Below are positions 39,900 through 63,970 of a stretch of DNA of 64,000 bases, piece after piece. The notes under the pieces were generated by a model. It did not search any database, was not told the DNA's origin, and saw nothing but the letters and a program-made list of their open reading frames with translations. The translations under genes were made by a program, and so were the position numbers. How positions within the stretch are numbered: the first letter of the stretch is position 1; every line of letters starts with the position of its first letter. The stretch is taken from assembly GCF_050920415.1 (NCBI RefSeq), contig NZ_CP169309.1; one strand, 5' to 3'. The stretch comes from Escherichia coli. Lineage in GTDB: Bacteria; Pseudomonadota; Gammaproteobacteria; Enterobacterales; Enterobacteriaceae.

Positions 39900-42236
39900 A
39901 TGAAGCAAATTCGTCTGCTGGCGCAGTATTATGTTGACCTGATGATGAAGTTAGGTCTGGTGCGCTTCTCAATGTTGCTGGCGCTGGCCCTCGTCGTTCT
40001 TGCCATTGTGGTACAAATGGCAGTGACCATGGTGCTGCATGGTCAGGTCGAAAGCATTGATGTTATTCGTTCTATCTTCTTTGGTTTGCTGATTACGCCG
40101 TGGGCGGTCTACTTTCTATCGGTGGTCGTCGAGCAACTGGAGGAGTCACGACAACGTCTGTCACGGCTGGTGCAAAAACTGGAGGAGATGCGCGAGCGCG
40201 ATTTGAGCCTCAACGTTCAGTTAAAAGATAATATTGCCCAGCTAAATCAGGAAATTGCCGTTCGTGAAAAAGCGGAAGCAGAACTGCAGGAAACCTTCGG
40301 CCAACTGAAAATTGAAATTAAAGAGCGCGAAGAGACACAAATTCAGCTCGAGCAGCAATCCTCATTCTTACGTTCCTTCCTTGATGCTTCACCCGACCTG
40401 GTTTTTTATCGTAACGAAGATAAAGAGTTTTCCGGCTGTAACCGCGCGATGGAGCTGCTGACCGGAAAAAGCGAAAAACAACTGGTTCATTTAAAACCTG
40501 CTGATGTTTACTCACCGGAAGCCGCTGCGAAAGTCATTGAAACCGATGAAAAAGTGTTCCGTTATAATGTGTCACTGACCTATGAGCAGTGGCTGGATTA
40601 TCCCGACGGACGCAAAGCCTGCTTTGAAATCCGTAAAGTGCCGTACTACGACCGCGTGGGTAAACGTCACGGTTTAATGGGTTTTGGTCGCGACATTACC
40701 GAGCGTAAGCGGTATCAGGATGCACTTGAACGCGCCAGCCGCGACAAAACAACGTTTATCTCCACCATCAGTCACGAATTGCGTACACCGCTGAACGGTA
40801 TCGTCGGCCTGAGCCGCATTCTGCTGGATACTGAACTTACCGCTGAGCAGGAAAAATATCTCAAAACCATCCATGTTTCTGCCGTCACGCTGGGGAATAT
40901 CTTCAACGATATTATCGACATGGATAAGATGGAACGGCGCAAGGTCCAGCTTGATAATCAGCCGGTTGATTTCACCAGCTTCCTTGCCGACCTGGAAAAT
41001 CTCTCCGCATTGCAGGCGCAACAGAAAGGATTGCGCTTTAATCTGGAGCCGACGCTGCCATTACCGCATCAGGTCATTACCGACGGGACGCGTTTACGGC
41101 AGATCCTGTGGAATCTCATCAGTAACGCCGTCAAATTCACCCAGCAAGGCCAGGTTACCGTGCGCGTGCGCTACGATGAAGGCGATATGCTGCATTTTGA
41201 AGTGGAAGACTCTGGTATCGGCATTCCGCAGGATGAGCTGGATAAAATCTTCGCCATGTATTACCAGGTGAAAGACAGTCATGGCGGTAAACCTGCCACT
41301 GGCACCGGTATTGGTCTGGCCGTTTCTCGTCGTCTGGCGAAAAATATGGGCGGCGATATTACGGTTACCAGCGAACAGGGCAAAGGTTCCACCTTTACGT
41401 TGACGATCCACGCACCATCGGTGGCTGAAGAGGTCGATGATGCGTTTGACGAAGACGATATGCCTTTACCGGCGCTGAATGTGCTGCTAGTAGAGGACAT
41501 TGAACTGAACGTGATTGTCGCGCGTTCTGTGCTGGAAAAATTAGGAAACAGCGTTGATGTCGCCATGACCGGCAAGGCGGCGCTGGAGATGTTTAAACCG
41601 GGTGAATACGACCTGGTGTTGCTGGATATTCAGTTGCCAGATATGACCGGGCTGGATATCTCTCGTGAACTGACGAAGCGATATCCGCGCGAGGATTTAC
41701 CACCGCTGGTAGCCTTAACCGCTAACGTGCTGAAAGACAAACAAGAGTACCTCAATGCTGGAATGGATGATGTGCTGAGTAAGCCGCTTTCTGTTCCGGC
41801 GCTAACCGCGATGATCAAGAAATTCTGGGATACCCAGGATGATGAGGAGAGTACGGTGACGACAGAAGAGAACAGTAAATCAGAAGCATTGCTCGATATT
41901 CCCATGCTGGAACAGTATCTCGAACTTGTAGGACCGAAGTTGATCACCGATGGGTTAGCGGTGTTTGAGAAGATGATGCCGGGATATGTCAGCGTGCTGG
42001 AGTCGAATCTGACGGCGCAGGATAAAAAAGGCATTGTTGAGGAAGGACATAAAATTAAAGGTGCGGCGGGGTCAGTGGGGTTACGCCATCTGCAACAGCT
42101 GGGTCAGCAAATTCAGTCTCCTGACCTTCCAGCCTGGGAAGATAACGTCGGTGAATGGATTGAAGAGATGAAAGAAGAGTGGCGTCACGACGTAGAAGTA
42201 CTGAAAGCGTGGGTGGCAAAAGCTACTAAAAAATGA
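39900..42236 (+). CDS. arcB: Aerobic respiration control sensor kinase ArcB (hybrid histidine kinase)
   Basis: 778-aa ORF: TM region, PAS, HisKA H-box (ISHELRTPLN), HATPase, receiver and HPt domains. Confidence 0.96.
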   Translation: MKQIRLLAQYYVDLMMKLGLVRFSMLLALALVVLAIVVQMAVTMVLHGQVESIDVIRSIFFGLLITPWAVYFLSVVVEQLEESRQRLSRLVQKLEEMRERDLSLNVQLKDNIAQLNQEIAVREKAEAELQETFGQLKIEIKEREETQIQLEQQSSFLRSFLDASPDLVFYRNEDKEFSGCNRAMELLTGKSEKQLVHLKPADVYSPEAAAKVIETDEKVFRYNVSLTYEQWLDYPDGRKACFEIRKVPYYDRVGKRHGLMGFGRDITERKRYQDALERASRDKTTFISTISHELRTPLNGIVGLSRILLDTELTAEQEKYLKTIHVSAVTLGNIFNDIIDMDKMERRKVQLDNQPVDFTSFLADLENLSALQAQQKGLRFNLEPTLPLPHQVITDGTRLRQILWNLISNAVKFTQQGQVTVRVRYDEGDMLHFEVEDSGIGIPQDELDKIFAMYYQVKDSHGGKPATGTGIGLAVSRRLAKNMGGDITVTSEQGKGSTFTLTIHAPSVAEEVDDAFDEDDMPLPALNVLLVEDIELNVIVARSVLEKLGNSVDVAMTGKAALEMFKPGEYDLVLLDIQLPDMTGLDISRELTKRYPREDLPPLVALTANVLKDKQEYLNAGMDDVLSKPLSVPALTAMIKKFWDTQDDEESTVTTEENSKSEALLDIPMLEQYLELVGPKLITDGLAVFEKMMPGYVSVLESNLTAQDKKGIVEEGHKIKGAAGSVGLRHLQQLGQQIQSPDLPAWEDNVGEWIEEMKEEWRHDVEVLKAWVAKATKK

Positions 42237-42348
42237 CCCCGGCTAGACCGGGGTGCGCGAATACTGCGCCAACACCAGGGAAATCTTGGCTGCGCCGTAA
42301 ATTATTATGATGAGTTACAAGGGCACAGCACTGTTTTTCAGGCCGCAC
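42228..42348 (-). ncRNA. arcZ: ArcZ small RNA (Hfq-dependent), overlapping arcB 3' end in antisense
   Basis: Minus-strand sequence GTGCGGCCTGAAAAACAGTGCTGTGCCC...CCCCGGTCTAGCCGGGGTCATTTTTT recognised as ArcZ, including its 3' terminator; lies between arcB and elbB. Confidence 0.8.
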
Positions 42349-42465
42349 GCAGTTAAGATAGCAAAACTTAAATGATTTGTTACATGAATCAGTTAAATGT
42401 GTGATGCGTAGCATTTTTATTAAAAAAATTAATGTGTTTCAGTCAATTGCGAAAGGATGATCACA

Positions 42466-43119
42466 ATGAAGAAAATTGGCGTAATTCTGAGCGGATGCGG
42501 CGTCTATGACGGTTCTGAAATTCATGAAGCGGTGTTGACGTTGTTAGCTATTTCACGCAGCGGTGCGCAGGCGGTCTGCTTTGCACCGGATAAGCAGCAG
42601 GTTGATGTTATCAACCATTTAACTGGCGAAGCGATGACGGAAACGCGCAATGTGCTGATTGAAGCGGCACGAATAACGCGCGGTGAAATCCGTCCTCTGG
42701 CTCAGGCCGATGCCGCTGAACTGGATGCGTTGATTGTGCCGGGGGGGGTTGGCGCGGCGAAGAATTTAAGCAATTTTGCCAGTCTTGGTAGCGAATGCAC
42801 CGTTGACCGTGAATTAAAGGCGCTGGCACAAGCGATGCATCAGGCCGGAAAACCGCTTGGTTTTATGTGTATTGCCCCGGCGATGCTGCCGAAAATTTTC
42901 GATTTCCCGCTGCGTTTGACCATCGGTATTGATATCGATACCGCAGAAGTGCTGGAAGAGATGGGCGCGGAGCATGTGCCGTGTCCTGTCGATGATATCG
43001 TGGTTGATGAAGACAATAAGATTGTCACCACCCCGGCATATATGCTTGCGCAGAACATTGCAGAAGCGGCGAGCGGCATTGATAAGCTGGTTTCCCGCGT
43101 GCTGGTTCTGACTGAATGA
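42466..43119 (+). CDS. elbB: DJ-1/PfpI-family glyoxalase ElbB
   Basis: 217-aa [24 protein letters not shown]... Confidence 0.92.
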
Positions 43120-43844
43120 GTAAAAGCCGCTTAACGGTGTTTAGTTTCGTTCGCCGTTTTCTTCTACGGTTAATGGTTGTCCTCGCCGTTTTCTGGGGCG
43201 GGGGCATCGCGTTGTTTAGCGTTGCGCCTGTTCCTTTCTCAGCGGTAATGGCCGAGCGACAAGTCAGCGCCTGGCTGCATGGCAATTTTCGTTACGTGGC
43301 ACATTCTGACTGGGTCAGTATGGATCAAATCTCGCCGTGGATGGGACTGGCGGTGATTGCCGCAGAAGATCAGAAGTTTCCTGAGCACTGGGGCTTTGAT
43401 GTCGCTTCCATTGAGCAAGCCCTGGCGCACAACGAGCGCAATGAAAACCGTATTCGCGGCGCATCAACGATTTCTCAGCAAACAGCCAAAAATCTCTTTT
43501 TATGGGATGGACGTAGCTGGGTACGAAAAGGGTTGGAAGCCGGATTAACGCTGGGGATAGAAACAGTCTGGAGCAAAAAGCGTATCCTGACGGTTTACCT
43601 GAATATCGCCGAATTTGGCGACGGTGTGTTTGGCGTCGAAGCTGCGGCACAACGTTATTTCCACAAACCCGCGAGCAAACTTACCCGGTCGGAAGCTGCG
43701 TTACTGGCTGCCGTATTACCTAATCCACTGCGTTTCAAAGTCTCCGCGCCATCGGGCTATGTGCGTAGCCGTCAGGCGTGGATTTTACGGCAGATGTATC
43801 AGTTAGGCGGTGAGTCGTTTATGCAACAACACCAGCTGAATTAA
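43116..43844 (+). CDS. mtgA: Monofunctional peptidoglycan glycosyltransferase
   Basis: 242-aa ORF with N-terminal TM and transglycosylase motifs ([23 protein letters not shown]); 4-nt overlap with elbB. Confidence 0.94.
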
Positions 43845-63817: not shown

Positions 63818-63905
63818 AATCTCGCGCTAACAACCTGGAATCGAGCCGTCATACTACGGCGCAACGCCCTATAAAGTAAACGATGACCCTTCGGGAACTT
63901 CAGGG

Positions 63906-63970
63906 TAAAATGACTATCAAAATGTGAATTGTAGCTGACCTGGGACTTGTACCCGGGTCGGTATTTTTTT
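63906..63970 (+). ncRNA. Putative greA leader with intrinsic terminator (GraL-like short transcript)
   Basis: TAAAAT -10-like hexamer at 63906-63911; hairpin GACCTGGG-ACTTGTA-CCCGGGTC followed by T7 at 63964-63970, divergent from dacB, upstream of the expected greA start beyond the window. Confidence 0.4.

Follow-up and report, generated by a model that had tools for sequence, protein, structure and literature searches.

ArcZ and related overlapping RNAs

ArcZ is described as an Hfq-dependent small RNA that RNase E cuts at an R-N↓W-U-U motif followed by the sequence CCCUGGUGUUGGCGCA, yielding an active 3' fragment of 56 nt (2024 review, PMC11331407). At low oxygen ArcAB represses ArcZ, and ArcZ represses arcB in return (PMC11331407); both the Hfq dependence and the mutual regulation with ArcB/ArcA are stated in several accounts (PMC11331407; PMC4152358; PMC3937726). 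An antisense action of ArcZ on arcB, by destabilisation or interference, is reported in two independent papers (PMC4152358; PMC3937726), and a converse effect of arcB mRNA on ArcZ has been "speculated" (PMC11331407). Reviews give ten bases as the usual overlap of ArcZ and arcB, with the first report in 2001, and Pectobacterium carotovorum is the published exception to this overlap. One laboratory designed its experiments explicitly around the arcB/arcZ overlap and made its arcZ mutant at the -10 box, thereby sparing the overlapped arcB (PMC3937726). The gene, its overlap with arcB and the feedback loop are thus all already known from the literature.

As the literature has it, Hfq would bind the 3' part of ArcZ and RNase E would then cut the motif AG↓AUU, which lies at 42285/42284 in the DNA studied here, to release roughly 56 nt of the 3' end. 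In this fragment, CCCUGGUGUUGGCGCA is held to pair in trans with targets such as rpoS, which is activated, and mutS, flhDC and tpx, which are repressed. ArcA-P would repress arcZ at low oxygen, and in secondary accounts ArcZ would act as an antisense RNA encoded in cis at the 3' end of arcB and lower its mRNA, resulting in mutual negative regulation. The paper by Mandin and Gottesman of 2010, the primary one on ArcZ and arcB, is the source that secondary accounts cite for the lowering of arcB mRNA by ArcZ. ArcZ placed at an ectopic locus complements in Klebsiella (PMC11322559), which implies that for this phenotype it acts in trans and independently of arcB.

Two other kinds of system share part of this architecture. 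Cis-encoded 3'-3' antisense pairs of sRNA and mRNA are likewise convergent, with 3' ends that have sequence in common, and the arcZ and arcB transcripts contain 9 nt of such complementary sequence within the coding region. In contrast to these pairs, ArcZ is mainly documented as a trans-acting, Hfq-dependent, seed-pairing and RNase E-processed RNA (PMC11331407), and its overlap with the open reading frame amounts to just 9 nt, which some lineages can do without. Bidirectional intrinsic terminators resemble the locus in placing one G+C-rich hairpin between convergent genes, but the two-sided U/A-tract that defines them is missing here: a U-tract follows the stem on the - strand alone, whereas the + strand goes on with sequence complementary to the ArcZ core.

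The arcZ gene between arcB and elbB

An Rfam scan of the whole window, that is, the complete 64,000-nt stretch of Escherichia coli DNA that was analysed, gave two matches over the gathering score. One of them is ArcZ (RF00081), which scored 120.8 bits at 42241-42348 on the - strand (gathering score 66; E = 4.1e-27) and spanned the full model (positions 1-106 of 106). In the K-12 MG1655 record (NC_000913.3) arcZ (b4450) is placed at 3350577-3350697 and the arcB coding sequence begins at 3350689, which gives an overlap of 9 nt. The - strand of the window aligns with K-12 without gaps over 42190-42470, and 42228-42348 is identical to b4450 at 121 of 121 positions, with neither gaps nor mismatches, so the gene maps to exactly the interval assigned to ArcZ in the original prediction. 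Three differences from K-12 were found in these 281 nt, all of them in the flanks: two synonymous changes in arcB and one intergenic base at 42411. The elements of K-12 ArcZ, from 3' core and RNase E motif to terminator and U-tail, are all present without any in-gene difference. Of 5426 complete E. coli genomes, 5416 carried a single copy of a 181-nt ArcZ region, with an identity of 99% or more in 4804.

The neighbouring genes are equally well defined. The open reading frame at 39900-42236 matched the arcB profile NF008302 from end to end (1480.3 bits; residues 1-778 on profile positions 1-779), and a RefSeq E. coli genome 99.9% identical to the window carries the same frame, annotated as arcB and with the same end. 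The gene order arcB-arcZ-elbB, in which arcZ is convergent with arcB and elbB starts at 42466 on the + strand, is that of K-12, as is the 9-nt overlap with arcB. The 229-bp spacer between arcB and elbB contains arcZ, which bears out the warning in the original prediction that it should not be mistaken for empty sequence.

The identity as the known ArcZ, as originally proposed, is carried by the covariance model, the exact match to K-12 and the synteny, with arcZ convergent with arcB and upstream of elbB; the sequence offers nothing against it. We regard it as close to certain that 42228-42348 on the - strand is the E. coli arcZ gene (sraH/ryhA), with a 9-nt arcB overlap; the mechanism taken from the literature carries more reservations, its antisense component coming from secondary accounts. 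Since Hfq binding and cleavage by RNase E were shown on the K-12 RNA, to which this one is exactly identical, it very likely binds Hfq and is cut to the fragment of about 56 nt as well. The features of the locus are collected in Table 1.

Table 1. Positions of arcB, arcZ and their shared and flanking elements in the window.
Feature	Position	Strand	Basis
arcB, sensor histidine kinase, 778 aa	39900..42236	+	NCBIfam NF008302 equivalog; RefSeq annotation
arcB stop codon TGA; as UCA in ArcZ, between terminator stem and U-tract	42234..42236	+	ORF end; RefSeq transfer; K-12 annotation
9-nt segment common to arcZ transcript and arcB coding sequence, including the stop	42228..42236	.	Intersection of features
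arcZ gene, 121-nt primary transcript (5' G at 42348, last U at 42228)	42228..42348	-	Identity to b4450; RF00081
Predicted processed (active) ArcZ, about 56-57 nt, from RNase E motif AG↓AUU (42286-42282)	42228..42284	-	Motif in sequence; definition in PMC11331407
5' stem-loop GCUGUGCC ... GGCGCAGC, preceding the RNase E site	42289..42329	-	Rfam consensus structure
Conserved core/seed CCCUGGUGUUGGCGCA	42265..42280	-	Sequence; PMC11331407; upper-case consensus in Rfam alignment
Small hairpin GCGC-AGUAUUC-GCGC, between seed and terminator	42255..42269	-	Consensus fold
ArcZ Rho-independent terminator hairpin ACCCCGGU-CUA-GCCGGGGU	42236..42254	-	Terminator scan; MFE fold; covariation
ArcZ U-tract, 6 U	42228..42233	-	Direct sequence reading
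Putative -10 element TATCTT (-12 to -7 from the K-12 transcription start)	42355..42360	-	Assigned by hand
Putative weak -35-like element GTAACA	42378..42383	-	Assigned by hand

Within the transcript, AAG↓AUUU followed by the core occupies 42287-42265 and conforms to the R-N↓W-U-U pattern of a candidate RNase E site. The small GCGC hairpin lies mostly within the pattern used for the comparative search described below, so its invariance arises partly by construction and is uninformative. When all 121 nt are folded by minimum free energy (MFE; z = -2.7), the pairing of the 5' end is unlike that in the Rfam consensus, and the terminator agrees in both; from the MFE fold, the terminator alone was relied on.

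The sequence of the 5' half differs between genera and is too divergent to align. RNAalifold gave no consensus pairs in this half of the cross-genus alignment of 117 sequences among the matches listed, and since the MAFFT alignment is unreliable there, folds of the individual sequences were used instead. By this loose test, 78 of the 117 sequences among the matches listed have a stem-loop that ends 7-9 nt before the CCCUGG core. A stem-loop recurring in front of the core in these predicted folds would fit a conserved structural context for the predicted cleavage site.

Upstream of arcZ, the putative -10 and -35 elements together match 8 of 12 consensus positions, and the alignment shows TATCTTA to be kept in Escherichia, Citrobacter, Salmonella and Enterobacter; a scan for consensus sigma-70 promoters called no arcZ promoter. 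ArcA boxes are composed of repeats spaced by 11 bp. Inspection by eye of the region upstream of arcZ found GTTA at 42352, 42379 and 42392 on the + strand, at spacings of 27 and 13 bp that do not fit this period, and revealed no convincing ArcA-box spacing. A genome-wide ChIP study of ArcA reported finding no binding site in front of arcZ (PMC3798270), which leaves direct binding of ArcA to the promoter less uniformly supported than the wording "mutually regulated" in the original prediction implies.

Terminator, U-tail and the end of arcB

On the + strand the end of arcB reads ...GCT ACT AAA AAA TGA CCCCGGCTAGACCGGGG TGCGCG..., in which the A-run occupies 42228-42233 and the stop codon TGA 42234-42236. 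Both positions had been given correctly beforehand, as judged from the + strand sequence and from the end of the 778-aa frame. The original prediction had the ArcZ terminator abut or overlap the arcB stop codon; it overlaps, by the 9 nt 42228-42236, as in the K-12 record. The shared segment consists of the arcB stop codon and two Lys codons, and the six-U tail of the sRNA is templated by arcB codons 777-778, AAA AAA (Lys-Lys). Of the terminator stem (42254-42236), all but the closing U42236, the complement of the last base of the stop codon, is just beyond the arcB frame. U42236 forms the A-U pair that closes the stem, and C42235 and A42234 constitute the rest of the TGA complement.

The terminator scan of the - strand described a hairpin of 8 pairs, 6 of them G-C, with a loop of 3 nt and the tail CATTTTTT after the stem; the - strand sequence 3' of stem and loop is CAUUUUUU. 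The same hairpin (42254-42236) appears in the MFE fold. Taken alone, this simple scan is not above chance, with 1 site found against 0.8 expected in shuffled sequences. Comparison across species does rise above chance: in the 110 distinct sequences among the matches listed, 99.9% of the cells of the terminator helix are paired, compared to 27-47% when, as a control on these same sequences, the 3' partner was slid by 1-3 columns. Moreover, two stem pairs switch from G-C to A-U by compensatory changes in 18-21 distinct sequences among the matches listed.

The last position of the Rfam model falls at 42241, in the loop of the terminator and 5 nt short of arcB. The alignment to Rfam that had been proposed as a check therefore affirms the element as ArcZ, and the refuting outcome named with it, lack of a covariance match, did not occur, but it cannot confirm the overlap, since a covariance match alone does not reach arcB. 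The overlap is established instead by the anatomy of the terminator, the covariation of its stem among species and the curated K-12 ends.

Overlap geometry in Enterobacterales and its possible origin

For a comparative survey we collected exact matches to a 24-nt ArcZ core, one genome per species, which gave at least 120 loci from more than 30 genera of Enterobacterales; the sample is biased to species with an exact ArcZ core. The alignment comprised 117 sequences, 110 of them distinct, and the arcB stop was evaluated at 118 loci, where it was located in two ways, by homology to the C-terminus of the ArcB in the window and by openness of the reading frame.

Among the matches listed, 97 of the 118 evaluable species have the arcB stop embedded directly between the stem and the T-run. 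These embedded stops, again among the matches listed, are TGA in 68 cases (TCA as complement) and TAA in 29 (TTA as complement), ArcB ends in KK in all 97 species, and T-runs of 6, 7 and 8 nt occur at 15, 37 and 45 loci, corresponding to overlaps of 9, 10 and 11 nt. The window, like other Escherichia, belongs to the class with the shortest T-run (6 nt, 9-nt overlap). The embedded-stop geometry spans Escherichia to Yersinia, Photorhabdus, Proteus and Providencia.

The remaining loci among the matches listed fall into three groups: 11 of the 118 lack an overlap with the reading frame (9 Pantoea, 1 Mixta and 1 Chimaeribacter), 7 have a stop that overlaps the last 1-2 T alone (Morganella, Pluralibacter, one MAG and two Pantoea), and 3 show an apparent frameshift. 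Where arcB stops elsewhere, judged in the homology frame among the matches listed, the C-termini read KES, REK, QDK, RR, SR and others. Nonetheless, T[C/T]A followed by a T-run of at least 5 nt stands after the stem in 120 of 120 loci among the matches listed, including 21 in which arcB ends elsewhere. As the overlap is absent from 11 of the 118 ArcZ-bearing species among the matches listed, persistence of ArcZ does not need the ORF overlap. The survey extends the published exception to most Pantoea, one Mixta and one Chimaeribacter.

The scan for terminator-like sites on the + strand between 42237 and the start of elbB returned none. The + strand sequence that comes after the hairpin is not a U-run but is complementary to the ArcZ core. 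We infer from these two observations that arcB may lack an intrinsic terminator of its own before elbB, and that its transcripts probably continue antisense into or across arcZ, with a complementarity that would far exceed 9 nt. Such read-through would speak against a bidirectional terminator.

A tentative reading, possible and somewhat short of evenly balanced in our estimate, brings these features together: the KK-stop at the ArcB C-terminus would be an overprint of the ArcZ terminator and Hfq-binding tail. The shared 9-11 nt would then be dictated by the RNA, arcB would lack its own terminator and be transcribed antisense along all of arcZ, and regulation would work as a toggle of convergent transcription and antisense RNA and not as a 9-nt contact. 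The basis offered for the overprint is that, among the matches listed, T[C/T]A and the T-run persist even where arcB ends elsewhere and KK occurs exclusively where the arcB stop is embedded.

Alternatively, the overlap may simply reflect genome compaction, with the stop codon inside the terminator by coincidence and ArcZ affecting arcB by a route other than antisense pairing at the 3' end, such as interference from convergent transcription or indirect effects through RpoS and ArcA. The loss or reduction of the overlap in 18 of 118 ArcZ-bearing species among the matches listed speaks for this, as do the ectopic function of ArcZ in Klebsiella (PMC11322559), the description of part of the antisense model as speculative in a review (PMC11331407), and the weakness of a duplex that has 9 nt alone, six of them A-U. 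Compaction is harder to reconcile with a geometry that is alike in 97 of 118 species among the matches listed, from Escherichia to Yersinia, Photorhabdus, Proteus and Providencia, or with the two independent reports of an antisense effect on arcB (PMC4152358; PMC3937726); moreover, without a + strand terminator after arcB the complementarity is probably well above 9 nt. We consider this alternative unlikely, at roughly one chance in four.

That the hairpin is a bidirectional intrinsic terminator ending transcription of both arcZ and arcB is very improbable. Being near-palindromic, it also forms on the + strand right after the arcB stop, where no other + strand terminator precedes elbB, but there it is followed by GCGCGAAUACUGCGCC, which contains no U-run, and the scan calls the - strand site alone. 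In addition, the downstream + strand sequence is the complement of the invariant core in 117 of 117 sequences, with no U-tract in any, among the matches listed. This candidate was rejected, as a U-tract is found on one strand and the + strand hairpin runs on into GCGCGAAUAC. There is hardly any chance that the region encodes a small protein, and the 62-codon frame at 42226-42414 (-) in the mechanically compiled ORF list was likewise rejected, since it matched no NCBIfam family, its ATG (42414) precedes the mapped arcZ start by 66 nt and hence falls outside the sRNA transcript, and between genera the RNA structure is kept rather than the unalignable 5' sequence.

What this analysis adds to the known system is small: the position of the stop codon between stem and U-tail with the Lys-Lys codons templating the tail, the breadth of this geometry (97 of 118 species among the matches listed) and its loss mainly in Pantoea, and the caution that both the Rfam model and PGAP under-report ArcZ. 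An arcZ feature was absent from the PGAP-annotated E. coli records examined, and with annotation by Rfam alone the RNA would stop at 42241, leaving the arcB overlap unseen. Because the stop and the last two codons of arcB template the terminator tail, C-terminal tagging of ArcB, recoding of its last two Lys codons or replacement of arcZ by a cassette would also alter ArcZ termination and Hfq binding. Read-through of arcB, if true, would explain how a nominal overlap of 9 nt could matter.

Reading frames and neighbouring features

Two forms of elbB are available downstream of arcB, the longest open reading frame and the shorter form annotated in both RefSeq and K-12 (table); alignment to the NCBIfam ElbB profile begins at residue 1 of the shorter, 217-aa form. 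On the opposite strand, a 62-codon open reading frame covers arcZ entirely. It had no match in the NCBIfam profile search, its start lies upstream of the transcription start of the sRNA, and it is probably spurious.

Features of the window considered here
Feature	Coordinates	Strand	Size	Remark
elbB, longest ORF form	ATG at 42457	+	220 aa	
elbB, RefSeq and K-12 annotated form	start at 42466	+	217 aa	
ATG ORF across arcZ	42226-42414	-	62 codons	from ORF list; spans all of arcZ
greA leader	63848-63969	+		Rfam RF01769, full model; 127.5 bits, gathering score 60

The convergent genes mtgA (plus strand, end at 43844) and yrbL (minus strand, lowest coordinate 43841) share 4 nt where their 3' ends meet (43841-43844), constituting a second tail-to-tail overlap 1.6 kb away from that of arcZ and arcB. 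The greA leader occupies the distal end of the window, a placement that agrees with the order in which genes run from arcB to greA in K-12.

Published accounts conflict over ArcA at the arcZ promoter (42349-42440): according to reviews, phosphorylated ArcA binds and represses it (PMC11331407), whereas a genome-wide ChIP study detected no site bound by ArcA upstream of arcZ (PMC3798270).

ArcZ in Rfam and in genome annotations

Comparison of the Rfam match with the K-12 gene revealed that the RF00081 model ends at 42241, within the terminator loop, whereas the mapped RNA extends to 42228. The 13 nt of mapped ArcZ left out of the model comprise the 3' arm and the U-tail, and coordinates derived from Rfam therefore miss the overlap with arcB.

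Around the arcB-elbB spacer (window 42237-42465, and positions 2038-2266 of L001, the stretch given alongside it), arcB and elbB were the sole features given in the PGAP-annotated E. coli RefSeq records examined, and an arcZ feature was absent from these records. Among the E. coli records compared, only the curated K-12 record carries arcZ as an annotated ncRNA, so that the spacer appears empty in PGAP annotations.

When complete E. coli genomes were searched with the arcB-arcZ-elbB stretch, 10 of 5426 gave no match, a single genome matched at two places, and one matching place was plasmid-borne.

arcB ends and the T[C/T]A triplet among relatives

Among the 120 listed Enterobacterales loci, the arcB homology frame does not close at the embedded stop, located between the ArcZ terminator stem and the T-run, in L032, L103 and L078. 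It runs into the ArcZ terminator or core in Pantoea sp. 1.19 (L032) and Serratia sp. M24T3 (L103), and the arcB C-terminal region is seemingly disrupted in Kluyvera genomosp. 3 (L078). Misassembly of the homopolymeric A/T run could account for these irregularities, as could true frameshifts.

T[C/T]A immediately precedes the T-run in all 120 listed loci (L003-L122), at offsets of +21 to +33 past the 24-nt core. It is kept also in the 21 where arcB stops elsewhere, which include most Pantoea, Morganella, Pluralibacter, Mixta and Chimaeribacter. The retained triplet may be left over from an embedded stop in an ancestor, or it may be something that the 3' end of ArcZ requires.
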